Below are positions 5,536-61,676 of a stretch of DNA of 62,393 nt, piece after piece. This stretch comes from Candidatus Muiribacteriota bacterium (GTDB lineage: Bacteria; Muiribacteriota; DAOVTB01). The notes beneath the pieces are model-generated. The model worked only from the letters and a program-made list of their open reading frames with translations, did not search any database and was not told where the DNA came from. Each line of letters starts with the position of its first letter. Position 1 is the stretch's first letter. Location of the stretch: assembly GCA_030633305.1 (NCBI GenBank), contig DAOVTB010000004.1, positions 1 through 62,393 on the forward strand, read 5' to 3'. Made by a program: the position numbers and the translations under genes.

Positions 5536-5624
5536 GTCCTGAATGAGCGAATCTTGAAATTTTCTGCATCAGTTTAAGTCTGCAACGTATGTTAAGGCAT
5601 GAACAATAATTTAATCTCGTTCAA
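5536..5624 (+). repeat. Family A structured element, internally deleted copy
   Basis: GTCCTGAATGAGCGAATCTTGAAATTTTCTGCA matches the 5' arm of the other family A copies; degenerate 3' arm AATCTCGTTCA; starts a few nt after the upstream stop codon. Confidence 0.75.
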
Positions 5625-5639
5625 AGTTCGATTATTATT

Positions 5640-5680
5640 GGTGCCAGGGCTTATTTCACATACGAAACCTGGCACTTTTT
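5640..5680 (+). terminator. Hairpin with U-tract (family D-like GGTGCCAG...CTGGCAC), probable intrinsic terminator
   Basis: GTGCCAGG...CCTGGCAC followed by a T run, downstream of the 859-aa gene. Confidence 0.55.
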
Positions 5681-5808
5681 ATTCACATAGAATATAAAAT
5701 TTTTCGCGGCAAATATGCAATACCTTCTATAAATAATATGATATAATAAGGGATTAAAATATAGTCTTTCATTAAAATTTTTAATAAGTAAAGGGGATAA
5801 ATTTCAAC

Positions 5809-7854
5809 ATGAGAAAGCTTTCATATCTATTGGTATTTCTTGTAATTTTTTCAACTGCAACAACTTTATACGGAGGACTTGATAAGTTCTTCCTGTTAGA
5901 GGAAAATAAAAGACCTTTATACTATAATGTTTTAAATGGTCTTCCAAGTAACCATATCAATGATATGCTCTTTGATAGAAACTCCACACTTTATCTTGCA
6001 ACCGGAAACGGTCTTTGTGCTTTTGATGTTTATACGCATAAATCAAAAGTCTACAATGATGAAAATGGAATTTCCCATAATAACATCCTGGATATTTTGA
6101 AAATATCTGAAAACCTGCTTGTTTCTAATATAGATGGATTATGGTTATTCAAAACAGCAACCGGTAAATTCACTAAAATAAAAATAAAGAATTTTGAAGA
6201 CGTTCCAACCCGTCTTGTTTATTGTCCAATGTGTAAAAAACTGTATGTTGGGGTCACCACAGGTCTTTATGTCCTTTCAAATTTTAATCCAGATAATCCA
6301 TATAAATTCAAAGTAAAATACTATCCAGTTGATAGCACTGTTTATTGGGTAACAGTTTATAAAAAAACCTGTTATATCGCAACCAAAAAGGGATGTTTTA
6401 AACTTCAGAATGGGAAATTTGTTCCATTAATGGAATTTATGAATAAAAAAATTACTACACTGGCTGTTGTAAAAGATAAATTGATCATCTCGCTTGAAAC
6501 AGATTTTTTTTCATATGATGGTAAAAAAGTTGTATTACTTAAAAGTCCTTCAACTATTGGAATGTATGGAATCTATTTTGTCTGGAATGATCCTTTGATC
6601 CTGGCAGATTCATGCTGGTATGTAACCAATCTCCCCTGGATAGGTCAGGCATTTAAGAAAAGTTTTGGAGCTTTTAGACTTACTCTTGATAAAAATGATA
6701 AAGAAAAGTGGCAAAGGATTAAACATAAAAGAATTTCTTATAAATATGATAAAGGAACAACAAATCTTACATGTGTAGCCTTTGATGGTTGTTCTGTCTG
6801 GGTAGGAACACCTGGTGAGGGAATGATCGAATTAAGGGAAAAAATTAGAAAACCAAAGGTTTTGAAAAAGAAAAAAAATGCTCGTACTAAAGTTAAATCA
6901 GTTCCAACAGTCAAAGTTGAATCCATAACTTATGATAAAATTTCTACAATTCAAAAAAGATCAGAAATCAATATAAAAAATTCTCTGAAAATTTCAAATA
7001 TTGTTCTGAATCGCACTCCATTATCACTTACCGTATGTGATAATGAAGATATACTTGTTACTGATGAAAGAAGTGTTTACAGACTTACAGATTCAAATAA
7101 GATTGAAAAAATAGCATTACCTTCTTTCCAGAATGATGATATTTTCAAAGATTCAATTATCTTTCAGAATAAACTCTATGTACTTACCTCACTCAATAAT
7201 CTGTATGCAATTAATACTGATGTTAAGAAAGTCATACATAAGTTCAGATTCAAAAATGACGTTTCATCATTAAAAGTCTATAATAATTCTGTTTATCTTA
7301 AAGGTGACACAACGCTTTATAGAATCAGTACTGATAATAATTTCCAACTTTATGAATTTTCTTCCAAAATTGGTGATTTTTATCCTTTTAAAAATGATAT
7401 GGTAATAACTTCCGGAGGAGGTATATATATTCTTCGAAATGGTAATGAAGAACCAGAGGAACTTCTCCCTTTCATTACTACAAAACCTTATTCTCTTACA
7501 ACTCATAATGATAAAATCGTTTTCTATAATAATGAGCAGATGATATATCTGGAAAACTTCAAGAAAAAGGATTTTTTAAAAGATATTTTTTCAATCCGGT
7601 CAACAAAAATTGCATTGATTGCTGTCCTTAAAGGTGCAATACAATTCCTTTTACCTGACAATAGATCAAAATCTCTGATTTCCAGAAATGGAAAAATGCT
7701 TCTATATGATGCAGGAAACAATGAGGTATTAAAAAAATATAATACCAATGCTTGCATTCCTCTTGATAAAAAACCTGATCACATCGTATTGGCTACCGGA
7801 AAAAGAAAATTGATCCTGATATATAGGAATCAGTTATATGTTTTACAGATGTAA
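5809..7854 (+). CDS. Secreted beta-propeller protein (two-component-regulator propeller-like blades)
   Basis: Signal peptide; GLPSNHINDMLFDRNSTLYLATGNGL, GISHNNILDI and VWVGTPGEG are Reg_prop-type blade motifs. Confidence 0.75.
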   Translation: MRKLSYLLVFLVIFSTATTLYGGLDKFFLLEENKRPLYYNVLNGLPSNHINDMLFDRNSTLYLATGNGLCAFDVYTHKSKVYNDENGISHNNILDILKISENLLVSNIDGLWLFKTATGKFTKIKIKNFEDVPTRLVYCPMCKKLYVGVTTGLYVLSNFNPDNPYKFKVKYYPVDSTVYWVTVYKKTCYIATKKGCFKLQNGKFVPLMEFMNKKITTLAVVKDKLIISLETDFFSYDGKKVVLLKSPSTIGMYGIYFVWNDPLILADSCWYVTNLPWIGQAFKKSFGAFRLTLDKNDKEKWQRIKHKRISYKYDKGTTNLTCVAFDGCSVWVGTPGEGMIELREKIRKPKVLKKKKNARTKVKSVPTVKVESITYDKISTIQKRSEINIKNSLKISNIVLNRTPLSLTVCDNEDILVTDERSVYRLTDSNKIEKIALPSFQNDDIFKDSIIFQNKLYVLTSLNNLYAINTDVKKVIHKFRFKNDVSSLKVYNNSVYLKGDTTLYRISTDNNFQLYEFSSKIGDFYPFKNDMVITSGGGIYILRNGNEEPEELLPFITTKPYSLTTHNDKIVFYNNEQMIYLENFKKKDFLKDIFSIRSTKIALIAVLKGAIQFLLPDNRSKSLISRNGKMLLYDAGNNEVLKKYNTNACIPLDKKPDHIVLATGKRKLILIYRNQLYVLQM

Positions 7855-8920
7855 AAATAAAAAATATATCTTATTTATATTCATTTTGATTTTCAATCTC
7901 TCAATAGAGCATGTTTTTTCCTATGATATTGAAAAGAAAAACAATGATGTAAAAATAACCATTAATTCTAAAGGAAAAATATTAAATTCAATTACAGATT
8001 CAAGATATCGCAAAAGTCTTTTTAAAACCATAAGAGATATTGAATTTAAGACTCCTGAGCAAATCATTGTTGCAACCTGGGGAAATGGAGTTTACATCCT
8101 TGATGCGGATCTTAATATAAAAAAAAGATATTTTACGTATGAAACCGCTAATGCTTTATACATGATGCCTGAAAAGAATGAGGAGCTTAACTTCCTTGTT
8201 GGAGGTAAAGGAGCAATTGGAATATACTCAAAAAAAAATACTGAGAAAATTGTAAGAACTCGTAGTCTTCGACAGGGTGGTATTTATCATGATATCTGTT
8301 ATAAAAAGCCATATGGAATTCTAGCTGGAAGTACCGGAAAGGGTATTTACATATTTTCAGATTCAGGTAAATACAAGAACAATATCGAAAATCCATTGGA
8401 AACTCTTTGGATAAATTCATTAAAAATTGATCCACCAGAATGGTTTTTAAAAAAATATCTTAAAAATCCAGATTCAGATTACATTCTCGTTGGCGGCAAT
8501 AAAGGAATAGAAATCTATGATCTAAAAAACAACGCAACTTTTCCAATTAAAAATATCAATGGATTTGTAAACAGTATCAGATTTTCATCTCACAAAGCGG
8601 TCGTCACAACAACAAATAAAGGTATCTTTCTTTATTACTATTCTCGCTGGATTCACTTTAGTAAAAATTCCGGGCTAAACGGAATAAATATTTTTGATGC
8701 TGCAATTTGCGGAGATAGAATTTATCTTGCGACTGAAAAAGGACTCTTCTATATTAATTACATACAGGATGATTGTTCCAAGAAAGTAATCCCTGAATTC
8801 ACTGAAGAAACAAGAATAATCTATCCATATGGAAATGATCTGATCATCGGAACAAAAAATGGAAGAGTAGCAATCTTTTCTCCCAAAGATGGAAAAATAA
8901 TTAAAGAAATTAACTTTTAA
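7838..8920 (+). CDS. Secreted beta-propeller protein
   Basis: Hydrophobic N-terminus; blades IIVATWGNGV, LAGSTGKGI, IYLATEKGL, LIIGTKNG; overlaps the upstream stop. Confidence 0.7.
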   Translation: MFYRCKNKKYILFIFILIFNLSIEHVFSYDIEKKNNDVKITINSKGKILNSITDSRYRKSLFKTIRDIEFKTPEQIIVATWGNGVYILDADLNIKKRYFTYETANALYMMPEKNEELNFLVGGKGAIGIYSKKNTEKIVRTRSLRQGGIYHDICYKKPYGILAGSTGKGIYIFSDSGKYKNNIENPLETLWINSLKIDPPEWFLKKYLKNPDSDYILVGGNKGIEIYDLKNNATFPIKNINGFVNSIRFSSHKAVVTTTNKGIFLYYYSRWIHFSKNSGLNGINIFDAAICGDRIYLATEKGLFYINYIQDDCSKKVIPEFTEETRIIYPYGNDLIIGTKNGRVAIFSPKDGKIIKEINF

Positions 8921-8933
8921 TAGGGGCTAAATA

Positions 8934-23176: not shown

Positions 23177-23189
23177 GGGAGTATTAAAT

Positions 23190-23688: not shown

Positions 23689-23891
23689 TCTATTTTTAAT
23701 TAATAGCAATTTTAATCCAATCTAGTTCTGAGATACCATACCATTATAGTTAATTGAACAAAAAAGTAGCCTTGACCATCGTCATTATTTATCATTAGTG
23801 TGTTACTTGGAATAACAATTTTTTTAATTGCTACATAGCCTTAGAACCCTTTTCCTATTTCCTTTTTTTCTTTATCTTATTAATATCCATA

Positions 23892-24019
23892 TCCTGCGTT
23901 CTGAAAGAGATGAAGGTTGGAATTTTCAAATCAATTTATGCTGACGTGTACTCTTTTTGTACTTCGCAAGCATAAATTAATGCTGTAAATTTCAAGATTC
24001 GCTCATTCAGGACGCAGGA
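23892..24019 (-). repeat. Family A structured element, full copy
   Basis: Terminal inverted arms TCCTGCGT(T/C)CTGAA; conserved TGAGCGAATCTTG and CCAACCTTCATCTC on the minus strand. Confidence 0.9.
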
Positions 24020-24028
24020 ATATATTGT

Positions 24029-43035: not shown

Positions 43036-43060
43036 TATTCATCTACATTTAATTCTACAT

Positions 43061-43184: not shown

Positions 43185-43185
43185 G

Positions 43186-44103: not shown

Positions 44104-44119
44104 ATCGTATTCCTTTCGC

Positions 44120-45118: not shown

Positions 45119-45144
45119 TAGATTTTCCTCCAGGGTATCAAATT

Positions 45145-45660: not shown

Positions 45661-45673
45661 TTTATGAAACTCC

Positions 45674-46687: not shown

Positions 46688-46891
46688 TTATTGAACCTCC
46701 TCAATAGTTATCTCATTTTCATACATTTCTCTTATCCAGGACGCAAAAGAACTGCCTTCATATTTATTAAACATTTTTTTTGCAGTTTCAACAGCATCAG
46801 TCTGATTTTTGCTTTCAACAATAAATTCAACATCAAACTTTTTTCTGACTCCTGTATCCCAATAAGGTATTATAACTTTGAATTTTTTCAT
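46688..46891 (-). CDS. Small hypothetical protein (67 aa) inside the rnf operon
   Basis: TAATG overlap with rnfA; its stop abuts the rnfB ATG; it fills the gap exactly and contains the rnfB RBS (GAGGAGG). Confidence 0.75.
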   Translation of the reverse strand: MKKFKVIIPYWDTGVRKKFDVEFIVESKNQTDAVETAKKMFNKYEGSSFASWIREMYENEITIEEVQ

Positions 46892-47499
46892 TAAAAAATC
46901 TTCAATCCATTAAATCCCATAAAAGCAAGTGCAAGTAAACCGGAAACAACAAAAGCAATTGGCATACCTTTAAAGCATGCCGGTACTTCTTCCAGCTCAA
47001 GTCTTTCACGAATCCCTGCCATTAATACCAGTGCAAGGGTAAAACCTAAAGCAGCACCAACTCCCTGAGTTATTGTTTTTATCAATGCCCAGTATGTTTT
47101 CACTCCAAAATTTTGAATATTCAAAATTGCAACTCCTAAAACTGCACAGTTAGTCGTTATCAGTGGAAGAAAAATTCCAAGTGACTGATAAAGAGAAGGC
47201 ATGCTTTTCTGTAAAAACATTTCTACAAACTGTACAAGAGAAGCTATTACAAGAATAAATGTTACTGTTCTTAAATAACTGAGATCATGTCCTCCAACTT
47301 TAATTGAAAGCAGAAATTTTTCAATAAACCAGGTTGCAATTGAAGCCAGAGTCATAACGAAAGTAACTGCCATTCCCATACCAGCAGCAGTCTCTATCTT
47401 TTTGGAAACACCAAAAAAAGGACATAAACCAAGAAACCTGGAGAGAACATAGTTGTTAACAAAGACTGTTGCAATAATTATAGCTAATAATTCATTCAT
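46891..47499 (-). CDS. rnfA: Rnf complex subunit A
   Basis: [14 protein letters not shown] and [16 protein letters not shown]. Confidence 0.96.
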
Positions 47500-47502
47500 T
47501 TC

Positions 47503-48111
47503 TTATCCCTCCTTCTTTTCTCTTGATGCAATAAAAGCCATGATAAATCCCATTGTAATAAATGCTCCCGGTGCAAATATCATCGCCATTGCAGGTTTAC
47601 TGAATACTTCAATCATCATCGGAGTTCCTGAAAAAAGTGTTCCATTTCCAAAAAGTTCCCTGATTATTCCAATAAGCGAAAGGGCCAGAGTAAATCCAAT
47701 CCCCATCCCCAGACCATCAATGATCGATATAATAATACCGTTTTTTGAAGCAAAAGCTTCTGCACGGCCAAGAATAACGCAGTTTACAACGATAAGCGGA
47801 ACAAAAATCCCAAGTTGCGCATGCAATTCTGGAAGAAATGCACTCATTGAAAGATCCACTATAGTTACAAACGTTGCAATAACTACAATAAAAATTGGTA
47901 TCCTTATTTTTTCAGGTATAATTTTCCTGAAAAGTGATATTACTGCATTACTGCAAACAAGAACAAATGTTGCTGCAATACCCATACCAATGGCATTATA
48001 AAGTGAGGTTGTCACAGCAAGTGTTGGACACAACCCCAGAGCCAGTGCAAGTACCGGATTTTCTTTTATAAATCCTGCAAAAAATGTTTTAGAATAAGTT
48101 TTCTTTGACAT
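47503..48111 (-). CDS. rnfE: Rnf complex subunit E
   Basis: ENPV..LGLCPTLAVT, PLIVVNCVILGRAE, APGAF. Confidence 0.96.
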   Translation of the reverse strand: MSKKTYSKTFFAGFIKENPVLALALGLCPTLAVTTSLYNAIGMGIAATFVLVCSNAVISLFRKIIPEKIRIPIFIVVIATFVTIVDLSMSAFLPELHAQLGIFVPLIVVNCVILGRAEAFASKNGIIISIIDGLGMGIGFTLALSLIGIIRELFGNGTLFSGTPMMIEVFSKPAMAMIFAPGAFITMGFIMAFIASREKKEG

Positions 48112-49238
48112 CAGTTTTTACCTCCGTCAATAGTTTCTTTTAAAGCAATATATTTGTCTACTGATTTCCTTATTGCACTTGTTAACATTCTCGAAGTAAT
48201 TGTAGCTGCTGTAATTACATCTATTCTACCTTTTTTTTCGTCTTTATTATTCAGATAAAGTTCAGAAGGTTTCAAACCATGGAATTTTGACTGCCACCAT
48301 GACTCAGAATCTCCTCTTTTTACTTCCAGAATTCTTGCTCCCAGTCCAGGAGTTTCAGTCTGCTGAAGTACCTTGATTCCTGAAACAACATTCTGAGAGT
48401 TAATGCCAATAACAGTTACTACTTTGTCAGCAAAACAATTAGGTGCTATTTTATAGACTGTTCCAATAGGGTTTTCCCCATAATATGCTACAAAATATTT
48501 ATTGATAGTATATTCATTAAGATCATTAACAGTCAGCTCTTCATCTGAAAACAATTTATAAGCCTGCCCGGGAATAGCCTTTTTATCAGCAAGTTGAAGA
48601 AAACTTGCCAGACCATCTTCAATCTTGAAAATAATATCAGTTTTTCCGATCTTTACAGTTTTAGAATCAAGCAGAATCTGTTGTTTCTTTCCTGCAATTA
48701 AAATTTCAATTGCATCAAGTTCTTTATATTTAACCGGATGTAGAAGTATATTAATCAGAGTAGGTACAAATTTGGGATTCTTTTTAATAAAGGCTGCTCC
48801 CCTTTTCATTTCATCCTCGGTTCCATGAATAGTATCATTTTTGTTAATCAGTTTATTTTCATTGAACGATCTCAATACTACAAAAGCATCACTGTATTCC
48901 TTATTTTCACCCTTTTGTTTTTTCAAGTGTTCAATATTCGCTTTAATGTAATCTTTTCCAATTACGATAAGCTTTTTAAATTCAATTTCTCCATTTCTCA
49001 CAGTAAATTCAGCTTCATTTTTTCCTGATTCAAGAACGGATACATACTTACTGGCTGGAAAATTTCCAATATTAAGTCCACCGTCTTTCATGAAAAGAAC
49101 TTCTTTTCTGGCTCTCATTTCATTTTCATAATTAAGTTTCATTCTTACCGGATATGTTTTTTTATCAACATATGCCATTAGTAAAGCAGCGATAAAACAA
49201 AATAAGAAAAGGGTCATAACCATCTTGAAACTATCCAT
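48111..49238 (-). CDS. rnfG: Rnf complex subunit G (FMN-binding), enlarged
   Basis: N-terminal TM helix, ETPGLG, DVITAATITS flavinylation-like motif; lies between rnfD and rnfE; ATG 49238. Confidence 0.88.
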   Translation of the reverse strand: MDSFKMVMTLFLFCFIAALLMAYVDKKTYPVRMKLNYENEMRARKEVLFMKDGGLNIGNFPASKYVSVLESGKNEAEFTVRNGEIEFKKLIVIGKDYIKANIEHLKKQKGENKEYSDAFVVLRSFNENKLINKNDTIHGTEDEMKRGAAFIKKNPKFVPTLINILLHPVKYKELDAIEILIAGKKQQILLDSKTVKIGKTDIIFKIEDGLASFLQLADKKAIPGQAYKLFSDEELTVNDLNEYTINKYFVAYYGENPIGTVYKIAPNCFADKVVTVIGINSQNVVSGIKVLQQTETPGLGARILEVKRGDSESWWQSKFHGLKPSELYLNNKDEKKGRIDVITAATITSRMLTSAIRKSVDKYIALKETIDGGKN

Positions 49239-50301
49239 TTGCTGCCCCCTTTCCAAAAACTCTTGGAGATGTAAATCGGTCAATCAATGGAGTAAAAGCA
49301 TTCATTATAAGAATCGCATAACATACTCCTTCAGGATAACTCCCAGAGAATTTCCTTATCATGAAAATTAAAAAACCGCATCCGAAACCGAATATTATTC
49401 TGCCTAAAGGTGTAATTGGGGTGGTAACCATATCAGTTGCCATAAAAAATGCTCCAAGAAATAAGCCACCACAAAAAAGATGTATAAACATCATCTGTGG
49501 GTCAAAAAGTTTATCACTACCAAAAACGTATCCCAGAATTGCTACAGTAATAATTGTCGGTGCAGGAATATGCCATGTAATGTGACCGCGGCCTAGAAGA
49601 AATATTGCTCCAATAAGTAAAGCAACCGCAGAAGTTTCACCAATGCACCCGCCAATATTTCCAACAATCATATCCCACAATCCCATTTTGTGCACTTGCC
49701 CAGTTGAATCAATCAAGCCCTGTCCGACTTTTGCAAAAAAATGCGCGCCTGAAGTCAGAGACTGTTCTTTAAAATAACCAAGAGGAGTTGCCATTGAGAC
49801 CGCATCAATAATTTCCTTTCCTTTAACAATTTTTCCAGATAAGGAAAACCAGTCTTTAGAAAGAAATTTGACAGTCGGTGACCAGCTGGTCATAAAAGCC
49901 GGCCATGAAGCTAGCAGAAAAGCTCTACCAATGAGCGCCGGATTAAAAACATTTTTCCCAAGCCCGCCAAATACTGATTTTCCGATTATTATAGCGACAA
50001 TAGAACCTATTGCAGCTATCCATAATGGTGTTGCTGGTGGAAGACAGAATGCGAGAAGAAGTCCTGTAAGGCAGGCACTTCCATCAAGCAGGCAAAATTC
50101 AATTTTTAGAACTTTTCCTGCAACATATTCTGCCACCAAAGCGGAAATAATACACGTCAGTATTACAGCAAGTGCTTTGAATCCAAAAAAATAAATCCCG
50201 ACAAATCCTGCCGGCAATAATGCCAGTATAACGTCCCACATCACAGTTTTTACAGTAATCGGGGAATGAATATGAGGAGACGAAGTAATATTTAGTTTCA
50301 A
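49231..50301 (-). CDS. rnfD: Rnf complex subunit D
   Basis: SSPHI, FGGLGKNVFNPAL, SMATPL, GCIGETS, FMATD, YPEG. Confidence 0.96.
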   Translation of the reverse strand: MKLNITSSPHIHSPITVKTVMWDVILALLPAGFVGIYFFGFKALAVILTCIISALVAEYVAGKVLKIEFCLLDGSACLTGLLLAFCLPPATPLWIAAIGSIVAIIIGKSVFGGLGKNVFNPALIGRAFLLASWPAFMTSWSPTVKFLSKDWFSLSGKIVKGKEIIDAVSMATPLGYFKEQSLTSGAHFFAKVGQGLIDSTGQVHKMGLWDMIVGNIGGCIGETSAVALLIGAIFLLGRGHITWHIPAPTIITVAILGYVFGSDKLFDPQMMFIHLFCGGLFLGAFFMATDMVTTPITPLGRIIFGFGCGFLIFMIRKFSGSYPEGVCYAILIMNAFTPLIDRFTSPRVFGKGAANG

Positions 50302-50314
50302 GCTTTTATCCTCC

Positions 50315-51634
50315 TTACCTATTTTTATTATCTATTATTTTACTTTTTGTATAACGAATCATCTGTACAAGAGGCCGTGATGCTGGACATACATAAGCGC
50401 ACGTTCCACATTCAACACAATCAAGGGCTGCAATTTTTTCTGCTTCATCAAACAAACCTGCATTACCCAATTTCTCAATTTTTGAAGGCATCAACCACAT
50501 CGGACAATGATCAACACATCTTGCACATTTAATACATGGATATTTTTCTTTTTCCTGAGAAAATTCTTTTGAAAATGCCAGAATTCCAGATGTTCCTTTA
50601 GTTACAGAAAAATTTTCTATAAATGGAATTGAAAAACCCATCATGGGTCCTCCAGATATTATCTTGGCTGGTTCAAGAGAAAAATCTCCACAAAATTTAA
50701 ATATTTCACTAAATTCTGTTCCTACTCTGACTATAATATTTTTAGGTTTATGAATACTGTTACCACTTACAGTTACAATCCTTTCATAAAGAGGAGTATT
50801 CAGACATACAGCATCATATACAGCTTTGGCAGTTCCAACGTTCTGTACAACAACTCCAACATCCAAAGGTAATCCTCCTGAAGGAACTTCCTTTTTCATG
50901 ATTGCAGCTATTAAATTTTTTTCAGCTCCTTGCGGATATTTTGCTTGAAGTGATACAACTTCAAATTTATAAGCCTTAGATTTTTCCTCAAGGATGTTAA
51001 TTGCATCTGGTTTATTATTTTCAATACCTATGTAAACTTTTTCAGCTCCGGTAAACTGTTTGATTATATCAATTCCCTTGAGCATTTCTTCAGGAAATTC
51101 AATCATAGTCCGGTGATCAGCTGTCAAAAAAGGTTCACATTCAGCACCATTGATTATTATTGTCTTAATTTCCTTCCCTTTCGGTGGAACAAGTTTTACG
51201 TGGGTCGGAAAAGTTGCTCCTCCCATGCCTACAATACCTGCATCTGTGATCGTTTTTATAATATCTTCCTTTTTCAGATCCTTGTAATTCTGATTTTCTG
51301 AAGCATCATAAAATTTTTCGTCTTGACCATCTGATTCAATAACAACTGCACTGGATTTTCTTCCCATTGGAGTCAAAACAGAAATTATTTCTATAACTGT
51401 TCCAGATAAAGACGCATGGATATTTGCAGATACATATCCCTGCATTTGACCTATGATCTGACCAGTTTTAACCTTATCGTCTTTTTTAACGACTGGTTTT
51501 GCCGGTGCACCAATATGTTGTGATAAAGGAATTATTACTTTTGAAGGCAGTCCCATCTTCTCAGTAGCAAGGTGCTCGGTAGAGCCCTTGTACTCTTCAA
51601 TATGAAAACCACCTGTAAAAGAAAGAGATTTCAT
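50315..51634 (-). CDS. rnfC: Rnf complex subunit C
   Basis: QHIGAPA, GIVGMGGATFPT, NGAECEPFLT, KYPQGAEK, two 4Fe-4S motifs; ATG 51634 with AAGGAG RBS. Confidence 0.96.
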   Translation of the reverse strand: MKSLSFTGGFHIEEYKGSTEHLATEKMGLPSKVIIPLSQHIGAPAKPVVKKDDKVKTGQIIGQMQGYVSANIHASLSGTVIEIISVLTPMGRKSSAVVIESDGQDEKFYDASENQNYKDLKKEDIIKTITDAGIVGMGGATFPTHVKLVPPKGKEIKTIIINGAECEPFLTADHRTMIEFPEEMLKGIDIIKQFTGAEKVYIGIENNKPDAINILEEKSKAYKFEVVSLQAKYPQGAEKNLIAAIMKKEVPSGGLPLDVGVVVQNVGTAKAVYDAVCLNTPLYERIVTVSGNSIHKPKNIIVRVGTEFSEIFKFCGDFSLEPAKIISGGPMMGFSIPFIENFSVTKGTSGILAFSKEFSQEKEKYPCIKCARCVDHCPMWLMPSKIEKLGNAGLFDEAEKIAALDCVECGTCAYVCPASRPLVQMIRYTKSKIIDNKNR

Positions 51635-51671
51635 GTCATACATCTCCTTGATTTGGATTAAAATATTTTGT

Positions 51672-51700
51672 AGCATAATAATTTAAGTGCAATTTGTCAA
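51672..51700 (-). promoter_or_regulatory. Sigma70-type promoter of the rnf operon
   Basis: Minus strand TTGACA-17 nt-TATGCT. Confidence 0.65.
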
Positions 51701-51709
51701 GAAAGTTAT

Positions 51710-52570
51710 GAATACTATTTTATATATATGAATCAAAAAGAAAAGACTAAAACTACTTAAATTTATAAATATCGTAGTAGTAGTAGTAGGGACTGTGGAA
51801 ATGTGGAAACCGTTGGAAAAGATATATGCCAGTTGATTTTTTTATGTGAAGAAAATGTACATATTTTTTTTATAAGCTTCAGATTCTGTTTATAGTTTGT
51901 GGATAACCAGGGATAAAAAAAAAAAGAAACCTTATCCACTTTTTATTAACAAAAAGTTGTTATAAAAAAAAATTTGAATATGAAGGTTGAGTTTAATAAG
52001 TTTTCCAAGCGTTTTTGACCTGACAAAAAACAATTTTGTCGGTTTTATAAAATGTGTTGTGTGGAAAAGTGAGTACTTGGTTCTGAAAAGGCTTGATAAA
52101 CAATGAAACCGAGGTTTGTGTGTTATCCACATCATCAACAAGACTATAGATTTAAGGTGATATATCGATCTCCAATTACCGAAAGCTACATTTGAAATGT
52201 GCTCCTTCGCTTGTGAGATAACAAAATTATAAGGAATCTGGTTTTTTATGATTGAAGTTTCAAGTATATTTGTCAAAGAGATGTTTGAATGATAATAATC
52301 CAAGTTCAGCTTGTCAAATTAAAGAAATAGAGTATTATTTTATATATACAATTTAAAAAAAATTATCCATTTTTAGCAACAAAAAATTGTTATAAAAAAA
52401 TATTTGAAAATTAAGGTTGAGTTTGATAAGATTACCAAGCATTTTATTTCTGACAAAAAACAATTTTGTCAGTTTTATAAAAATGTGTTGTGTGGAAAAG
52501 AGAGCACTTGTTTCTGAAAAGGCTTGAAAAACAATGAAACTGAGATTTGTATGTTATCCACATTATTAAC
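51710..52570. other. Chromosomal replication origin oriC
   Basis: AT-rich tract, then (TAG)5 at 51775-51789, GGAC, then overlapping boxes TGTGGAAATGTGGAAAC (51794-51810), the layout of the Bacillus basal unwinding system. Further boxes at 51898 (TGTGGATAA), 51932, 52060, 52123 (TTATCCACA), 52363, 52491 and 52554 (TTATCCACA). Gene orientation diverges here; upstream of dnaA. Confidence 0.88.
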
Positions 52571-52601
52571 AAAACTATAATTTCAAGGTGGTATATAGAT
52601 G
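51932..52601 (+). repeat. Diverged direct duplication (~240 bp) of the dnaA upstream region
   Basis: 51932-52170 aligns colinearly with 52363-52601. Confidence 0.92.
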
Positions 52602-53948
52602 AAAATAGAGGATAAAGAAATATTATCCGTTTGGAAAAAAGTCCTTAATATCATTAAACCTCAATTGCCGGAAGCTACATATGAAATGTGTTTCGCGTCA
52701 TGCGAACCGACAAAAATAGATGGGAACCAGTTCTTTATCGAAGTATCAAACATGTTTGTCAAGGGAATGATAATTGATAAACATAAAATTCTTATAGAAG
52801 GTATTCTATCTGGACTCATGGGTTTTGCAGTTTCGCTGGATATAACTATAAGGACAACTCCGATTTTGACAAGAAAACCAGAAAATGAAAAAAAACAAAA
52901 GAAAAAAAGTATAAATAAAAAACCTGCCGGCATACCACTTAATCCTAAATATACATTTGATTCTTTTGTTTCTGGAAAAAGTAATGAATTTGCATATGCA
53001 GTATCAAATGCAGCTTCCGAGTCTCCTGGAAAACTTTATAATCCTCTTTTTATTTATGGTGGAGTCGGACTTGGAAAAACTCATCTTCTCCAGGCTATAG
53101 GACATCATATTTTAGAGCGAAAACCAAAAACATCTCTTATATATGTTTCGGCTGAAGAATTTATGAATGATCTTATTTCTTCAATTAAAAACAAGAATAC
53201 TCCAGAGTTTAGGAAAAAATATAGAAAAGCTGATCTTCTGCTGATGGATGATGTACAGCTTCTTGCTGGACGAATTCAAACCCAGGAAGAATTCTTTCAT
53301 ACTTTTAATGAACTTTTTCAAAGGAACAAGCAGATTGTACTTACCAGCGACAGGCCGCCGAAACGCTTGGCTCAAATGGAAGATCGTCTTGTAAATCGGT
53401 TTGAACATGGACTAATAGCTGATGTTCAACCTCCAGATCTGGAATTAAGGATTGCAATTCTTAAGAAAGAAGCGGAAGATAAAGAAGTTGAAGTTACTGA
53501 GGAAATTTTGGCTTATGTTGCCGAAAGAGTTGAATCTAATATCAGAGAATTGCAGGGAGCATTTACCAGACTTGTAGCTTATTCTTCAATAGAAAAAAGT
53601 TTTATTACCAGAGAACTTGTTGATAGAATCCTTGGGGATTTAATTAAGTTTAAAAAACAGAAAATAAATGTTGAATATATAAAAAACCTTGTTGCAGATT
53701 ATTACGAAGTAACTGTTGCTGATCTTATTTCTAAAAAAAGAAGTAATAAAATTACTCATCCAAGGCAAGTTGCGATTTATCTTATCAGAACTATTTTAGA
53801 CTTGCCGTTACAGCTTATCGGTGAAAAATTTGGCGGGCGTGATCATACTACGATAATGCACTCTATTTCTAAGATTGAGGATATGATGAATAGAAATCTT
53901 GAATTCAAAAATGAAATCGAGATTTTTGAGAAAAATCTTTCAATTTAG
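52599..53948 (+). CDS. dnaA: Chromosomal replication initiator DnaA
   Basis: LNPKYTFDSFV, YNPLFIYGGVGLGKTHL, TQEEFFHTFN, FGGRDHTT. Confidence 0.98.
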   Translation: MKIEDKEILSVWKKVLNIIKPQLPEATYEMCFASCEPTKIDGNQFFIEVSNMFVKGMIIDKHKILIEGILSGLMGFAVSLDITIRTTPILTRKPENEKKQKKKSINKKPAGIPLNPKYTFDSFVSGKSNEFAYAVSNAASESPGKLYNPLFIYGGVGLGKTHLLQAIGHHILERKPKTSLIYVSAEEFMNDLISSIKNKNTPEFRKKYRKADLLLMDDVQLLAGRIQTQEEFFHTFNELFQRNKQIVLTSDRPPKRLAQMEDRLVNRFEHGLIADVQPPDLELRIAILKKEAEDKEVEVTEEILAYVAERVESNIRELQGAFTRLVAYSSIEKSFITRELVDRILGDLIKFKKQKINVEYIKNLVADYYEVTVADLISKKRSNKITHPRQVAIYLIRTILDLPLQLIGEKFGGRDHTTIMHSISKIEDMMNRNLEFKNEIEIFEKNLSI

Positions 53949-53973
53949 GACATTTCGGGTTATATAACTAACT

Positions 53974-55056
53974 ATGTTTTTAAAGAAAATAGCCCTGGAA
54001 AATTTCAGGTATTTCTCTGATTTTTCCAGAGATTTCGGTAAATTTAATTATATTTATGGCCCAAACGGGGTTGGAAAATCTAGTTTAATCGAAGCAATCT
54101 ATTTTCTTATGTCAGGAAGGTCAGTACGTTCCGGTAAAGTTTTCAAAAGACATGGACATAAATCCTTAATCTCATTTGAAAAAGAACAGATGAAATTAAC
54201 TGGTTTTTTAGAAATTTTTGGAGAATTAAACGAAATTTCTATTGAAGCTGACAATAAGAAAAAAATATTCTCTATAAATGAAAAAAAACTAAAAAAAAGT
54301 AGTGAATTGTTTAAAATAAGCAGAATATTGATGTTCCATCCTGGTGATATTGCCATTATTGATGAGAATCCTGCATATAGAAGATCTTATTTTGATCATG
54401 AATTCTCAATGATTGACACTGGATACTTCGATGATCTTTTGAAAATAAGAAAAATATTGAGTGAAAGAAACAAATTATTGAAAAATATTCAACTGGGTTT
54501 AAAAGTTGATGAATTATATTTAAAGTCAATAACAGACTCATATATAATATTGACTTTTAATGTTATTTATAATAGAATAACAATGCTTTCTGTGATTCAA
54601 AAAGAATGGCAGAATAAGGGGAAAATTTCCTATAGATTGAATAATCAGTTCGATATTTCCGAGCTCGATAAGGGAAGTTTAAAAGCAAAGATTTTTGAGT
54701 TGCATGAGCAGCTTGAAAAAAGAGAAAAAAGATATGGTTATTCTCTATTTGGTCCCCAGAGAGATGAATATGTATTTTTTGAGAATAGAAACGCTATAAA
54801 AGAGTTCTATTCAACTGGTGAAAAAATGAAATGGATACTTGAATTGAAACTGGCAATAAACAAAGTGATTAGAAATAAAAGCAATATTGCTCCGGTTATG
54901 CTGATGGATGATTTTTTTAATTTTTTTGATCAGAAGAATTATTTGGAATTACTTTGTGGCCTTTCACAGAATCAGGTATTTTTTACTTCACAGGAACGCC
55001 GTAGTGAGATTGGAAAACACTTTGATTCTGTCAATGAAATAGAGTTAATTAGATGA
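53974..55056 (+). CDS. recF: DNA replication and repair protein RecF
   Basis: LENFR, GPNGVGKS Walker A, PAYRRSYFD, GPQRDE, STGE, LMDD. Confidence 0.9.
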   Translation: MFLKKIALENFRYFSDFSRDFGKFNYIYGPNGVGKSSLIEAIYFLMSGRSVRSGKVFKRHGHKSLISFEKEQMKLTGFLEIFGELNEISIEADNKKKIFSINEKKLKKSSELFKISRILMFHPGDIAIIDENPAYRRSYFDHEFSMIDTGYFDDLLKIRKILSERNKLLKNIQLGLKVDELYLKSITDSYIILTFNVIYNRITMLSVIQKEWQNKGKISYRLNNQFDISELDKGSLKAKIFELHEQLEKREKRYGYSLFGPQRDEYVFFENRNAIKEFYSTGEKMKWILELKLAINKVIRNKSNIAPVMLMDDFFNFFDQKNYLELLCGLSQNQVFFTSQERRSEIGKHFDSVNEIELIR

Positions 55057-55667
55057 AAAAACTAGTAGGCGAAATCAAGAATCTAGCAAAAAAAATAGGA
55101 TTAAAGCGTCATCTGGATGTTTTAAACTGTCAGCGTGAATGGTGTGATACCGTTGGAGAATCAGTAGCAAATGAGACCAGTATTGTATCTTCCAATAAAA
55201 ATACGCTTATAATTTCAGTTAACAGTTCCGTGTGGCTTAATGAACTGGTTTTTCTAAAGCAGGATATCCTGAGAAAAATGAAAAAAACGGAATTTCTTAA
55301 AAAATATAGTAACCTTCGTTTTGTTCAAAGATCTGAAAATCCTGTAAAAAAATTGGATAAAGATAAGAAAAACCGAAAAGTTCCTGAGCCTGAACCTGAA
55401 ATTAAGATTCCCGACGATATCAGGTGTGATATAAAAAGAGAATCTGATATGTTCAAGGATGTTGAAATTTCTGAAAAATTTTACAAATTATTTGAAAATG
55501 CTTATAAAGCAAGACAGAGATATATTAAAAATGATGTTTTTATGGAAAAAGTATGTGAAGTCATGAGTTATTTGAATCGGGATCCTGGACTTTCATATTT
55601 TGATTTGAACAGAAAATACGGAAGATACTCAGTTGATATGTATTATTTTGCACTTTATAACAGGTAA
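55053..55667 (+). CDS. DUF721/DciA-family protein with C-terminal extension
   Basis: W..TVGESVANET...LIISVNSSVWLNELVFLK pattern; located after recF. Confidence 0.8.
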   Translation: MKKLVGEIKNLAKKIGLKRHLDVLNCQREWCDTVGESVANETSIVSSNKNTLIISVNSSVWLNELVFLKQDILRKMKKTEFLKKYSNLRFVQRSENPVKKLDKDKKNRKVPEPEPEIKIPDDIRCDIKRESDMFKDVEISEKFYKLFENAYKARQRYIKNDVFMEKVCEVMSYLNRDPGLSYFDLNRKYGRYSVDMYYFALYNR

Positions 55668-55673
55668 TAGGTT

Positions 55674-55922
55674 ATGTATTTACATATAGGAAACAATTTT
55701 ATGCTTTATTCGAAAAATATAATTGCAATGATGGATAAATCAATCTTTGGTTTCAAGGTAAACGAAAAATATATTCAGAGACTTTATAAGCGTAAGAGAG
55801 TAGTTCGAATATGTAATAAGGATGAGATAAAATCTGTTGTATTGACGGATGATGGATTATGTTATATCACAAATATTTCAGTTAGAACATTAGTTAAAAG
55901 AGTTAGGGAAAATAAATTTTAA
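55674..55922 (+). CDS. remB: DUF370/RemB-like small protein
   Basis: MYLHIG...IIAM.D...KSVVLT...YITNISVRTLVKR; located before gyrB. Confidence 0.85.
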   Translation: MYLHIGNNFMLYSKNIIAMMDKSIFGFKVNEKYIQRLYKRKRVVRICNKDEIKSVVLTDDGLCYITNISVRTLVKRVRENKF

Positions 55923-55926
55923 GTAG

Positions 55927-57834
<1,908 letters not shown>

Positions 57835-57849
57835 GAAGGTGAGATAAAA

Positions 57850-60477
57850 ATGTCAGAATACGAGGATAAGCTGGAACACGGAATAGTCCCGATTTATGTT
57901 GAAGATGAGATGAAAGTCTCATATATTGATTACGCGATGAGTGTAATCATCGGTCGCGCTCTTCCAAATGTCAGAGATGGTTTAAAGCCGGTACATTTAA
58001 GAATTCTTTATGCAATGAGAGATCTTGGACTTGTTCCATCAAAGTCTCATAAAAAAAGTGCAAGAATCGTCGGTGAAGTTCTTGGTAAGTATCATCCACA
58101 CGGTGATACTGCTGTTTATGATGCTATGGTCAGGATGGCCCAGCCGTTTGCAATGCGTTATCCGCTTGTAGATGGACATGGAAACTTTGGGTCAGTGGAT
58201 GGTGATAATGCAGCGGCGATGAGGTATACAGAAGCTCGTTTATCGAAACTTGCCATGGAAATGTTAGAAGATATCGAAAAAGATACTGTTGACTGGCGCC
58301 CAAATTTTGATGATTCACTGAAAGAACCTGTTGTACTTCCATCAAAGATACCTAATCTTTTATTAAATGGATCAAGTGGAATTGCAGTTGGTATGGCAAC
58401 AAACATACCTCCGCATAATCTTTGTGAAATCGTTGAAGGTCTTATTGCAGTTATTGATGATCCAGAAATTCAGATTGAAGAATTGATGCAGCATGTTACT
58501 GCTCCTGATTTTCCAACTGGTGGAATTATTAATGGAAAAGCTGGAATAAACAGTGCTTATAGAACTGGTCGAGGTATTATAAAACTCAGAGGAAAGTATG
58601 ATGTCGAGGAAAAGAAGAATAAAAACTGGATAGTTATAACTGAGATTCCTTATCAGGTGAATAAATCAAAACTACTTGAGGCTATTGCTGATCAGGTTAG
58701 AAGTAAAAATATCGAAGGGATTTCAGATCTTCGAGATGAATCAGACCGTAAAGGTATGAGGATTGTAGTTGAACTTAAAAGAGACGTTGAAGCCGAAGTT
58801 GTCGCAAACTATCTTTTTAAGAATACCCAGCTTGAAGTAAGCTTTGGAATCAACCTGCTGTCTATTACAGGTGGAAAACCTCAGACTATGACGCTCAGAG
58901 GAATGTTGAACGAATTCATTGAGCATAGAAAAGATATCATTGTTCGAAGAACAAAATATGAACTTGAACTTGCACTTAAAAGAGCACATATCTTAGAAGG
59001 GTTAATAAAAGCACTTGATAATATTGATGAGATTATTAAGTTAATAAGAGCATCCAAGAATCCAGCTGAAGCAAAAGTCCGCTTGATGGAGACCTTTGAT
59101 TTTACTGATATCCAGGCCCAGGCGATTCTTGATATGCGTTTACAGAAGCTTACCAGTCTGGAAGTTAATAAACTTATAGAAGAATTAGCTGAATTACATA
59201 AACGAATTGAACATTACAGAGCTATTCTTGGTTCAGAAGTAATGGTCCTGGATATGATCAAGGATGATCTGATTTATCTCAAGAATAAATATGGAGATGA
59301 ACGTAGAACAGAAGTTGTAGATCAGGTTCAGGATATTACCCTTGAAGATATGATTCAGGATGAAGAAGAAATAATTACAATCACTCATTCCGGATATATT
59401 AAACGAGTTCCTGTAGATACATACAAAACTCAGCATCGTGGTGGAAAAGGTGTTACAAGCGGAAAGAGAAAAGAAGCTGATTTCATTGAAATTCTTTTTA
59501 AAGCCAATACACTTGATTATCTCTTGCTATTTACCAATACTGGTAAAGTCTACTGGTTGAAAGTATACTTTATTCCAAGAGGCAGCAGAGAAGCCAAGGG
59601 TAAACCGCTTATCAATCTTGTAAACAGAGATAAAGACGAAAGATTTACAGCAGTTATTCCAGTAAGAAATTTTTCACCTGACAGATCTTTTGTGATGATT
59701 ACCAAATTCGGTAAGATCAAAAGAGTTACAATGGATCTTTTTAGTAATGTCAGGAAAAATGGAATAAGAGCTCTTAATTTCGCAACTCCAGAAGATGAAC
59801 TTGTAAGTGTATTGAAATGTGTTAATGAAGATCAGATCTTTATAGCAACTAAATACGGTAAAGCAATAAGATTTAAAGCTACTGATGTCAGAAATATGGG
59901 TCGAACAGCTGTTGGTGTTAAAGCAATAAACCTGAGAGATGGTGATGAAGTTATTACATCTGAAGTTGTTCCAGACGATAAATTCACAATTTTTACTGTA
60001 ACTGAAAAAGGATATGGGAAAAGAACAAAAATTGCTGCTTACAGGCTTCAAAAACGGGGTGGTATTGGAATACGGAATATCATAGTTGATTTTAGAAATG
60101 GAGAAGCAAGAGTAAGCTCTGCTGTTTTGGTTGATGATGAATTGATGATCATTACGAAGAATGGAAAATTGATCCGAATTTTTGCAAAGCAGGTTAGATC
60201 AATGGGCAGATCAACAAAAGGTGTCAGGATTATAAATCTTGGTGATGATGACGAGGTAATTGCACTCGAAAGAATTATTAAGGATGATGAAGTAGAGGCA
60301 AAAATAGAGGCAACAGCTGATTCCAATGTTGATAGTAATGCAAAAGTATATGTTGACGTTGCAGTAGATGGTGATGTCGTCGAAGATGCTGATATTATTG
60401 AAGAAGATGATGTAATCGAAGATGACGATGATATTGTTGATGGTGATGACATAGCAGATGATGATGATGAAAACTGA
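57850..60477 (+). CDS. gyrA: DNA gyrase subunit A
   Basis: YHPHGD, AAMRYTE (catalytic Tyr), GyrA-box QHRGGKG, acidic tail. Confidence 0.98.
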
Positions 60478-60493
60478 TAAGTAATAGTGAGAT

Positions 60494-60847
60494 ATGAAAG
60501 TTAGAAGCCTTAGAGAATATCGGGAAATCAGGTTTAACGCTAGCGAAGGAAAGCTTAGACCTGAAAGAAAAATTCCTAAAGAATTGCTACTGATTGTAGT
60601 AGCGATTATGCTTCTGATTTCCGGGATCTTCTATTATCAGAATGAAATAGAATTAAAGCAATTAAGAAAAGAAAAAAAGCAGATTTTAAAAGAAAAGCAT
60701 AAATTAAAGCTTTTATATGAAGGTAAGAAAAGAGAGATGGAGCTTCTTATGAGAAAAGAGGGTATTGAAAAATATGCTCGAGAGAAGTATAATTTCTTGA
60801 AGCCGGGTGAAATCCTGCTTATAGACGGAAGTGCAGAAAAAAAATAA
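60494..60847 (+). CDS. Septum formation initiator (FtsB/DivIC family)
   Basis: TM helix, coiled coil and IEKYAREKYNFLKPGE motif. Confidence 0.85.
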   Translation: MKVRSLREYREIRFNASEGKLRPERKIPKELLLIVVAIMLLISGIFYYQNEIELKQLRKEKKQILKEKHKLKLLYEGKKREMELLMRKEGIEKYAREKYNFLKPGEILLIDGSAEKK

Positions 60848-60857
60848 TTTCTCTTCG

Positions 60858-60886
60858 TTGACAAGAGAAATTATTTCTGGTAAGAT
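60858..60886 (+). promoter_or_regulatory. Sigma70 promoter of the tRNA cluster
   Basis: TTGACA-17 nt-TAAGAT; the -35 lies within the inverted repeat AATAATTTCTCTT..AAGAGAAATTATT. Confidence 0.75.
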
Positions 60887-60898
60887 TTATTGCTGTGT

Positions 60899-60986
60899 GG
60901 AGAAGTGGCCGAGTGGTTGAAGGCGGCGGTCTTGAAAACCGTTGTGCCGCAAGGTACCGTGGGTTCGAATCCTACCTTCTCCGCCA
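60899..60986 (+). tRNA. tRNA-Ser(TGA)
   Basis: Acceptor GGAGAAG/CTTCTCC, anticodon loop CTTGAAA, long variable arm, GTTCGAATC, encoded CCA. Confidence 0.96.
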
Positions 60987-61116
60987 TCATAACATTTGAT
61001 GAGCGATCTTTGAATTTTTAATGCCATTTATCAAACCTGCGAAGCACACAAGAGTGCATCTCGGTTTGAAATGTCATGAAAAATCCAAATATCATCTCAG
61101 CAAATGTCCTGATGGC
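60983..61116 (+). repeat. Family A structured element in the tRNA-Ser(TGA) trailer
   Basis: GCCATCA..ACATTTG.TGAG pairs with CTCA.CAAATGT..TGATGGC. Confidence 0.9.
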
Positions 61117-61193
61117 AGTTAGATAAAAAAAGAACAAAGAAAAAAAGTTCCAAAGCATATGATATGCTAGGGATTAAATATTTGAATATGTTT

Positions 61194-61286
61194 GGAGAGG
61201 TGGCCGAGCGGCTGAAGGCGTGCGCCTGCTAAGCGTATGTAGGGTTTATAGCTCTACCGTGGGTTCAAATCCCACCCTCTCCGCCA
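61194..61286 (+). tRNA. tRNA-Ser(GCT)
   Basis: Acceptor GGAGAGG/CCTCTCC, anticodon loop CTGCTAA, long variable arm, GTTCAAATC, CCA. Confidence 0.96.
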
Positions 61287-61406
61287 CATTCATAATGAGA
61301 GAATCTTGAAATTTTTTGCACCTTCCCAAGCCTGCGGAGTACAGAATAGTACACCTCGGCTTGAAAAGCCTTAAAAATTCCAACCTTCATCTCATTCTAA
61401 ATGTGG
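61284..61406 (+). repeat. Family A structured element in the tRNA-Ser(GCT) trailer
   Basis: CCACATT...AATGAG pairs with CTCATT...AATGTGG. Confidence 0.9.
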
Positions 61407-61470
61407 TAGATGAATTAATAAAAAAAGAAGATAAAGAAAAATTCTTGATCAAAGAATTTTTTTCTTGGAT

Positions 61471-61547
61471 GCGTTCGTAGTTCAATTGGATAGAGCATCG
61501 GACTTCGAATCCGAAAGTTGCAGGTTCGAGTCCTGCCGAGCGCGCCA
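61471..61547 (+). tRNA. tRNA-Arg(TCG)
   Basis: Acceptor GCGTTCG/CGAGCGC, anticodon arm TCGGA-CTTCGAA-TCCGA, GTTCGAGTC, CCA. Confidence 0.95.
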
Positions 61548-61676
61548 TTCTACGTCCTCAATGAGCGAATATTGAATTTTTCCGCAGCGTTTTAAACCTG
61601 CGGAGTATGCTAATACACCGCAGGTTTAAAAAACTTTGAAAATTCCAATCTTCATCTCATTGAGAACGTAGAATGG
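61545..61676 (+). repeat. Family A structured element in the tRNA-Arg trailer
   Basis: CCATTCTACGTCCTCAATGAG pairs with CTCATTGAGAACGTAGAATGG (one mismatch). Confidence 0.92.

Follow-up and report, generated by a model that had tools for sequence, protein, structure and literature searches.

What kind of repeat settles exactly where genes end, and which of its two strands is the one whose fold is kept? The question is raised by a stretch of 62,393 nucleotides from Candidatus Muiribacteriota bacterium (assembly GCA_030633305.1, contig DAOVTB010000004.1; this whole stretch is called the window here), in which a prediction made from the letters alone had recognized seven copies of a covarying multi-stem element, termed family A. 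Bacterial hairpin repeats are usually seen as selfish DNA or as RNA stabilisers, and family A sets these readings apart: its placement and orientation speak for the upstream transcript, and its pairing rules for the opposite strand. Based on the analysis described here, we conclude that the hairpin is maintained through the strand antisense to the adjacent gene, be it as single-stranded DNA (ssDNA) or as RNA.

Family A is a hairpin-forming repeat of about 130 nt. All seven copies named in the original prediction are present, as judged by sequence inspection and by nhmmer, which locates each one in the window. The genome to which the window belongs is a metagenome-assembled genome of an uncultured bacterium (4.64 Mb, 350 contigs, 33% G+C, rated 90% complete), and an nhmmer profile derived from the window's six full copies gave 268 matches in it. 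After the merging of overlaps and of matches on both strands, 215 places were left, 171 of them full-length copies and 44 partial ones, spread over more than 100 contigs; this number is far beyond chance. A covariance-model search of the same genome returned at least 150 matches, and comparison of 147 full-length ones with the nhmmer orientation placed them on the antisense strand.

The element is an imperfect palindrome of typically 128–133 nt with conserved inverted blocks, AATGAGCGAATCTTGAA and TCCAACCTTCATCTCATT, and with stems that are variable in sequence yet remain paired. The predicted layout (outer stem, asymmetric loop, inner and middle stems, apical hairpin) was recovered in full: an outer stem ending in GAG/CTC is followed inward by the asymmetry of CGAAT versus TTCAT, the stem TTGAAATTTT/AAAATTCCAA, a variable middle stem, TGCGR versus CYTC, and the apical hairpin. 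The predicted length of about 125 nt had to be revised, as 162 of 163 copies have a hairpin of 127–133 nt, with an A-rich tail of about 25 nt behind it. In an alignment of 163 copies anchored on the invariant GAG...CTC, with positions denoted by k, the outer stem extends over 17–19 bp and positions k=0–16 are paired in 83–99% of the copies; the exception is k=9, a conserved C·A in 83 of the 163. Watson-Crick pairs are found at k=17 in 109 and at k=18 in 92 of these copies (60 and 49, respectively, in shuffles), and no pairing above that of shuffles is recognized past k=18. Conservation is highest in the two internal inverted blocks, in contrast to the variable outer, middle and apical stems, with the outermost stem (k=7–18) as the most variable part of all. 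Many copies start with TAAC and finish with GGTTR. The 3' tail is G-rich at k=20–21, consists of T or A at k=22–27 (often GGTTAAA), and contains at most about 7% C at k=28–40, with A at 60–78% as far as k=46. Because the tail keeps GTTAAA irrespective of the stop codon at the gene junction, and is common to subfamily members at different loci, it was counted as part of the element. Reading of both strands by eye revealed just short frames that vary in length with the stems, and a small coding frame inside the element was thus rejected.

The covariation of the stems, on which the original prediction had relied, turned out to be strong. When 41 copies from two lineages (the present genome and a relative, described below) are aligned on the antisense strand, 49 pairs result, 36 of which show double-sided changes, and the same pairs have changed repeatedly in both lineages. 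In this alignment, 94.8% of the cells are paired, versus 80.4% after column shuffles (none of 500 reaches the observed value) and 30–45% with slid partners; the covariation score is 0.449 versus 0.187 in shuffles, these shuffle figures overstating independence because the sequences are related. Among 162 genome copies, the pairwise identity has a median of 0.63 and that to the nearest neighbour a median of 0.87, and only five copies have a neighbour at an identity of at least 0.95. Pairing is retained at this divergence: it amounts to 94–97% in every divergence class, from 94.1% in the 41 copies with less than 0.70 identity to the consensus to 96.7% in the 25 copies at 0.80–0.85.

As for the strand, the original prediction had placed the selected fold in the sense RNA, as a 3'-untranslated-region (3'-UTR) module, and this part was not supported. 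With RNA folding, the antisense strand is the stabler one in 163 of 163 copies (mean −67.1 versus −49.4 kcal/mol for sense), and with DNA folding parameters in six of the six full window copies. The RNAalifold consensus has −64.3 kcal/mol and 49 pairs for antisense, and −33.7 kcal/mol and 37 pairs for sense; when the same 49 pairs of the 41-copy alignment are read on the sense strand, the paired cells fall from 94.8% to 85.8%. The wobble pairs are almost confined to one strand. Read on the antisense strand, the 162 genome copies have 823 G·U cells versus 87 A·C cells (an A·C being a G·U on the sense strand), and the 41-copy alignment has 195 versus 19. Two G·U pairs are nearly invariant on the antisense strand, at many other pairs A-U, G·U and G-C interchange, and G·U makes up about 11% of the paired cells of the 162 copies. 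Coding strands are G-rich in this genome (skew +0.14), so that cytosine deamination on the sense strand would give the opposite wobble asymmetry.

The gene-linked position and orientation, noticed in the window, were found again throughout the genome. For this census, 3519 non-overlapping open reading frames (ORFs) of at least 90 aa were called, covering 85% of the genome; 32 of the 171 full copies lack a gene on one side in their contig, and the other 139 are classifiable. The upstream ORF lies on the same strand as the element in 126 of these 139. When stop positions were counted, a same-strand ORF was found to end nearby for 137 of the 163 aligned copies. The last base of its stop codon falls at k=16–21 in 91 of the 137 (at exactly k=17 in 45), namely 0–4 nt before the first stem base or overlapping it; in 31 it falls at k=1–15, where the ORF ends on a TGA within the 5' arm, in six at k=23–33, after a short spacer, and in nine at a distant k of 87 or more. 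The first two bases of the junction stop (often AA) belong to the stem. The element as a whole does not bring the junction stop with it, because TAA is missing at k=19–17 from copies that have no ORF next to them. Six of the 37 tRNA genes have a copy directly 3' of them, all in sense orientation. On the downstream side, the next gene follows at widely varying distances (median roughly 170 nt). By class of intergenic region, copies occupy 97 of 2327 co-directional regions, 36 of 459 convergent ones and two of 383 divergent ones. Of the pairs of neighbouring copies no more than 5 kb apart, 38 have the same orientation and nine have opposite ones. With the regional gene-strand majority as proxy, replication direction was rejected as the cause of the orientation, as the element follows its gene in 11 of the 13 cases in which the adjacent gene and the regional majority are discordant; GC skew is unusable as such a proxy because the coding strands are themselves G-rich.

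The helix does not end at the tRNA genes. In five of the six tRNA-linked copies it runs 3–7 bp into the tRNA 3' end (CCA, discriminator and acceptor strand), and the DNA past the 3' arm is thus complementary to a sequence constrained by the host; since 28 of the 37 tRNA genes encode CCA, the CCA at these copies is native. At ORF-linked copies, pairing stops short of the stop codons outside k=18, and the partner of the G of TGA junctions is C in four of eight copies, versus three of 31 for TAA junctions. The extension into tRNA ends could have come from template switching, from selection for a longer helix, or from guide-like pairing at insertion.

A second lineage was obtained by an exact-pattern scan of JGI metagenome contigs, which yielded 27 contigs from two samples (contigs of this relative carry L-numbers and those of the window's genome C-numbers below). 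Its coding flanks are about 80–85% identical to those of the window's genome, and it has 31 copies of family A; 29 of these are intact at the 5' end, and in 24 of the 29 an open frame on the same strand ends at the 5' edge. Synteny identified nine sites filled in both lineages, six filled only in the relative (opposite C325, C8, C95, C260, C255 and C35) and one filled only in the window's genome, C244:45008, which lies opposite a clean empty site in L040 where TTTGA is directly followed by gattcaataaattATG. These differences in presence and absence show gain or loss of family A. The insertion is directly past the orthologous stop codon in L043/C260, L033/C325 and C244/L040, and a few codons ahead of the old stop in L037, L041 and L048, where the ORF is now terminated within the element. 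In four of the sites filled in both lineages, the copies agree in their outer stems and have central modules of different subfamilies, which points to conversion between copies. Across 421 pairs compared between orthologues, 56 show double-sided changes and 25 a single-sided change that preserves pairing, broken pairs being uncountable because the structure was inferred from the same pairs; the loops differ at 124 of 318 positions. Contigs from four DNA sequencing runs, followed over window positions 42394–62393, include none that bridges an empty site; they break at repeats, and their joints are tRNA look-alikes of other organisms. The original prediction had preferred a structured element 'rather than a decaying MITE' (miniature inverted-repeat transposable element). 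Its covariation and its tie to genes agree that family A is not passively decaying; given the nine shared and the six and one lineage-only sites, to deny that it is a MITE at all was too strong.

From these searches, family A seems to be specific to a lineage comprising the window's genome and its relative, and was seen in no other genome of the phylum that was searched. A covariance model found it in none of 86 other phylum genomes (with strict filters and 39 candidates scored per genome), and a BLAST-type search of 40 phylum relatives gave one weak 31-nt match and nothing convincing; the genomes searched are related at the level of the same phylum, with no close outgroups among them. An exact-pattern scan of 185,579 species genomes gave a single chance match, within coding sequence. 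In agreement with the original prediction of an undescribed element, no Rfam family matches: at gathering threshold only three tRNAs match in the whole window, and in E-value mode four copies hit only generic long hairpins (plant miRNA precursors) with 10–28 bits against cut-offs of 84–249.

Our leading explanation, which we hold tentatively, is that family A is a non-autonomous mobile hairpin similar to REPINs or MITEs, folded from the bottom strand as ssDNA, targeted to the 3' boundaries of genes and moved by a putative enzyme. It would be a lineage-specific repeat that colonised exact gene 3' boundaries and was gained and lost there. The folding form would be ssDNA of the bottom (template) strand, antisense RNA being the less likely one, and a putative structure-specific enzyme would recognize this form and copy or move the element, by analogy with the action of HUH transposases on hairpins of repetitive extragenic palindromic (REP) sequences and of IS200/IS605, or of IntI on attC bottom strands. 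Copies might survive at places where the transcript of the upstream gene tolerates the sense-strand hairpin, the weaker of the two. More doubtful is a stronger version, namely that the element homes, gene-strand-specifically, to the exact 3' boundaries of genes (stop codons and tRNA CCA ends), with a fold on the template strand and base pairing of the hairpin with the last bases of the gene.

Several observations weigh against this explanation. No mobilising gene was found beside any family-A copy in the genome, and no ORF is bracketed by inverted copies, so that no parent insertion sequence (IS) with the same ends is seen in this fragmented, 90% complete assembly; because the assembly breaks at repeats, the absence of a mobilising gene is weak evidence. 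Neither RVT_1 nor TnpB has a match anywhere in the genome, the best score for an integron integrase (TIGR02249) is 75.4 bits against a cut-off of 265, the scores being no more than XerC/D-like, and no family-A copy lies within 4 kb of any of the six Y1_Tnp matches, which are flanked by other repeats; a link of these transposases to family A was thus rejected for the copies seen. The ends of the element are fuzzy and without a conserved terminal sequence, and the junction stop shows no sign of target duplication (Fisher p of at least 0.1 for each of TGA, TAG and TAA in 91 copies). A replication-coupled ssDNA mechanism predicts an orientation tied to replication, yet the orientation follows the gene. 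Two of the 'empty' sites, C8 and C95, contain arm-like words and may be deletion remnants, so that part of the polymorphism may be due to deletion, not insertion. A G·U share of about 11% seems to fit structured RNA better than DNA hairpins, and no ssDNA transposon is known to target stop codons and tRNA ends.

The rival explanations divide according to the strand. A sense-strand RNA module in the 3'-UTR or trailer, which stabilises the 3' end, offers a processing point to RNase III/E or insulates cistrons from one another in the manner of ERIC, NEMIS/Correia or BIME, would account for the tie to the upstream gene, for the exclusion from divergent spacers (2/383) and for the stems that enter tRNA 3' ends; the sense RNA still folds, with a mean of −49.4 kcal/mol, and co-transcribed intergenic hairpin repeats near stop codons have been described (PMC1590033). 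It is nevertheless unlikely, since on the sense strand the wobble is reversed about tenfold (A·C 823, G·U 87), fewer cells of the same 49 pairs are joined, the three conserved mismatches are all of the A·C type (two nearly invariant and that in 83 of 163 copies), and a run of A, not of T, follows the hairpin, which is thus not an intrinsic terminator. An antisense RNA with a host role, for example a stable hairpin at the gene 3' end that blocks antisense transcription or marks it for degradation ahead of its entry into the gene, would by contrast fit the RNA-like interchange of A-U, G·U and G-C, the exact position at the 3' edge of the gene to be protected, and the enrichment in convergent spacers (36/459 versus 97/2327 in co-directional ones). 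We regard it as less probable again than the sense module: a promoter is not consistently present upstream on that strand (a scan of the tRNA cluster gave only one antisense-strand site ahead of a hairpin, beside one copy), the tail does not form a −10 box on the antisense strand, where it reads TTTTTAACC, the U-rich tract lies ahead of the hairpin and provides no terminator in that direction, 89 of the 139 classifiable copies have no nearby gene on the antisense strand, and adjacency to a stop codon at single-nucleotide precision has no evident need.

Two further rivals concern DNA. Intrastrand template switching in quasi-palindromes is known from Escherichia coli, and in an old MITE the pairing could be kept by this process together with gene conversion, the palindrome being extended into its flanks. 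The stems that reach into host tRNA sequence in five of six cases, the swapped central modules at orthologous sites and the nearest-neighbour identity of just 0.87, by which many copies are not recent, would all suit such mutational maintenance. Because template switching makes perfect complements, it fails to explain the conserved mismatches, the asymmetric loops in nearly all copies and the tenfold wobble bias, and it leaves the gene-end position and the orientation unexplained, so that we consider it improbable. Dispersed attC-like sites, bottom-strand hairpins that end each 'cassette' and serve as substrate for a tyrosine recombinase, would likewise lie directly after an ORF in fixed orientation and fold better on the bottom strand, and the frequent TAAC start and GGTTR finish recall them. 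This proposal is close to refuted: an integron integrase is lacking at the score given above, copies follow core genes (mnmG, tRNAs) and are scattered over more than 100 contigs, gain and loss involve only the element and not a gene together with it, and the conserved part is internal, AAC/GTT boxes not being universal.

Other classes were tried and rejected. The absence of a target duplication stated in the original prediction was confirmed in 91 copies, in which the junction stop codon is not repeated in the 3' flank. A classical MITE with terminal inverted repeats was rejected for want of both such repeats (the conserved blocks being internal) and target duplication. ERIC and Correia elements are flanked by TA duplications and occur in both orientations; for family A, the prediction of a TA target duplication fails at k=19. 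A retroposed element similar to a short interspersed element (SINE) would require RVT_1, duplications and a bias towards 5' truncation, none of which is seen, about 20 of the listed partial copies being 5' parts only and about 16 being 3' parts only. An intrinsic terminator was rejected as the 3' flank has 60–78% A at k=28–46 and no T-run, and as none of the three elements of the window's tRNA cluster was called terminator-like; nor was any consistent promoter or terminator found within the element. For Y2_Tnp (IS91-type) there is no match in the genome, but the control matched in no genome either. As to the lack of a transposase in the window, stated in the original prediction, the window's contig has none of the listed Y1_Tnp or integron-integrase matches; 14 window ORFs were scanned against NCBIfam.

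In short, family A works most like a REPIN or another non-autonomous hairpin repeat, yet fails the defining tests of REP/REPIN, MITE with terminal inverted repeats, attC, terminator and retroposon. As REPINs are described in PMC3116915, compensatory changes are common in their hairpins and an ssDNA intermediate is proposed; they share with family A a hairpin of about 100–130 nt, two conserved inverted blocks, and a less conserved spacer whose structure is preserved by compensatory changes; like family A, they also number hundreds of copies and are extragenic, restricted to a lineage and apparently kept vertically. Strand-specific folding fits an ssDNA substrate in both cases. Unlike a REPIN, family A has no GTAG/CGTC tag, no short REP palindrome for each block and no cognate RAYT (REP-associated tyrosine transposase) flanked by family A, and has instead a precise abutment to stops and tRNA ends, a gene-linked orientation in 91% of copies and an A-rich tail. 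ERIC of Yersinia, NEMIS/Correia of Neisseria, Ype and Efa are presented in PMC1590033 as imperfect palindromes of about 130 nt after genes that form long mRNA hairpins, and thus resemble family A in size, post-gene placement and hairpin length; they are described as elements at the level of RNA, whereas in family A the antisense strand folds better, there is no duplication and the orientation is nearly fixed. attC sites resemble family A as imperfect palindromes directly after an ORF, with fixed orientation, a bottom-strand fold and structure conserved above sequence. In contrast to them, family A forms no arrays, has no IntI, follows core genes and tRNAs, is gained and lost alone, and has its conserved boxes inside; in an R-box test, the 5' positions k=18–16 are A (0.52), A (0.44) and C or T (0.44 each), and AAC/GTT is not universal. 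The ends of IS200/IS605-type elements and of their palindrome-associated derivatives are strand-specific DNA hairpins that insert with a specific orientation and without target duplication. Strand-specific hairpins, lack of duplication and insertion in a specific orientation are common to them and family A (they are cited also in PMC3116915), whereas their hairpins are separate and subterminal, with a fixed 4–5-nt target and a replication-linked orientation, and family A is a single whole-element hairpin without a fixed target word or TnpB and with a gene-linked orientation. An intrinsic terminator also places a hairpin just past a gene; family A is far longer, with an A-run after the hairpin, and on the other strand the T-run precedes it.

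If the bottom-strand explanation is true, a DNA element finds the precise end of a gene, be it an ORF or a tRNA, which is unexplained by any described transposition system. If homing is true, family A would be a dispersed, integrase-less counterpart of attC that marks about 4–5% of the genes and one sixth of the tRNAs. If instead the sense RNA is what counts, A·C-rich helices are selected in about 170 mRNA tails, which itself needs explaining. In any case, family A offers about 200 natural variants, together with orthologous filled and empty sites, for the study of how structured repeats persist in a compact genome.

Within the window, six of the seven copies start at the end of a same-strand gene, as had been predicted, three after ORF stops and three after tRNAs. 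The first, on the + strand, is truncated to the 5' arm and inner 5' half (5531–5590; nhmmer 5534–5590, model positions 8–64), and begins 3–5 nt past the stop TAA (5526–5528) of an 859-aa ORF at 2949–5528; no 3' half was found in the window. It is followed by unrelated sequence and a small hairpin, GGTGCCAGGGC...CCTGGCAC (5591–5680), of the same kind as a nested insert of about 95 nt (GGTGCCAG...CTGGCACC) that replaces the inner 5' half in at least seven other copies (C244:12604, C209:8792, C247:7429, C127:42165, C259:13335, C54:11852 and C282:3451). Those copies, which nhmmer scores as 3' halves, are either a composite subfamily or the result of repeated insertion at one spot. Elsewhere in the genome, at C255:20611–20887, two family-A copies stand in tandem on the same strand about 50 nt apart.

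The sole exception to the gene-end rule in the window is a full copy on the − strand at 23890–24022 (nhmmer 23891–24019; A-rich tail at approximately 23848–23889), which lies antisense between two + genes, an ORF at 23139–23609 and secD (start near 24100), upstream of the latter, and has an orthologous copy in the relative (L039). Two other full copies are on the − strand. That at 28501–28634 (nhmmer 28501–28630; tail at approximately 28455–28500) adjoins the − strand mnmG ORF (28615–30432), whose stop TGA (28615–28617) is inside its 5' arm, and that at 43057–43189 (nhmmer 43058–43187) adjoins a − strand RlpA-like ORF (43186–44103), whose stop TGA (43186–43188) is held in its first stem bases. 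mnmG and rsmG together occupy 27605–30432. The tRNA cluster has three full copies on the + strand: 60983–61115 (nhmmer 60988–61115; tail approximately 61116–61150), directly 3' of tRNA-Ser(TGA) at 60899–60986, whose GCCA forms part of the stem; 61279–61410 (nhmmer 61283–61409; tail approximately 61411–61443), directly 3' of tRNA-Ser(GCT) at 61194–61286, with a shortened outer stem that takes in the CCA; and 61545–61675 (nhmmer 61547–61675; tail approximately 61676–61714), directly 3' of tRNA-Arg(TCG) at 61471–61547, with the CCA within the stem. The only terminator-like site of this cluster, at 61724–61753, is about 50 nt past the hairpin of the third element and outside all elements. Upstream of the cluster, at 52303–60477, is a probable replication origin region, with a 296-nt spacer at which gene direction turns from − to + and which is followed by dnaA (52599–53948), recF (53974–55056), gyrB (55942–57834) and gyrA (57850–60477).

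Several repeat families crowd the intergenic DNA of this genome. A second family (ATAGATGGGGTCA...hairpin...TGACCCC) is found on the − strand just downstream of two family-A copies in the window (28372–28436 and 42963–43030), and also in the flanks of C72, C211, C243, C288 and C73. Related GGGGTCAGGTCTTT inverted repeats bracket five RAYT-like genes: of the six Y1_Tnp matches in the genome, five are RAYT-like proteins of about 285 aa at or near the cut-off for REP-associated transposases and are bracketed in this way, and one is short. The ATAGATGGGGTCA and GGGGTCAGGTCTTT repeats, together with the RAYT-like genes, are probably a separate REP/RAYT system. Two families of GTAG-tagged, G+C-rich hairpin REPs (72 and 49 regular-expression matches) often follow the A-rich tail of family A, for example at C204:20046 and C204:20365; one pair of them brackets the short Y1 transposase frame, which is interrupted by stops, and some resemble two-way terminators, with an A-run before and a T-run after the hairpin. 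A short repeat (ctcgcgcagag..cgc.gaggacgcagag) and one of the 'ccacgaaggacacgaag' type recur past gene ends, at C325:11250–11300, at C255:22200–22260 and in C319 near 6050.

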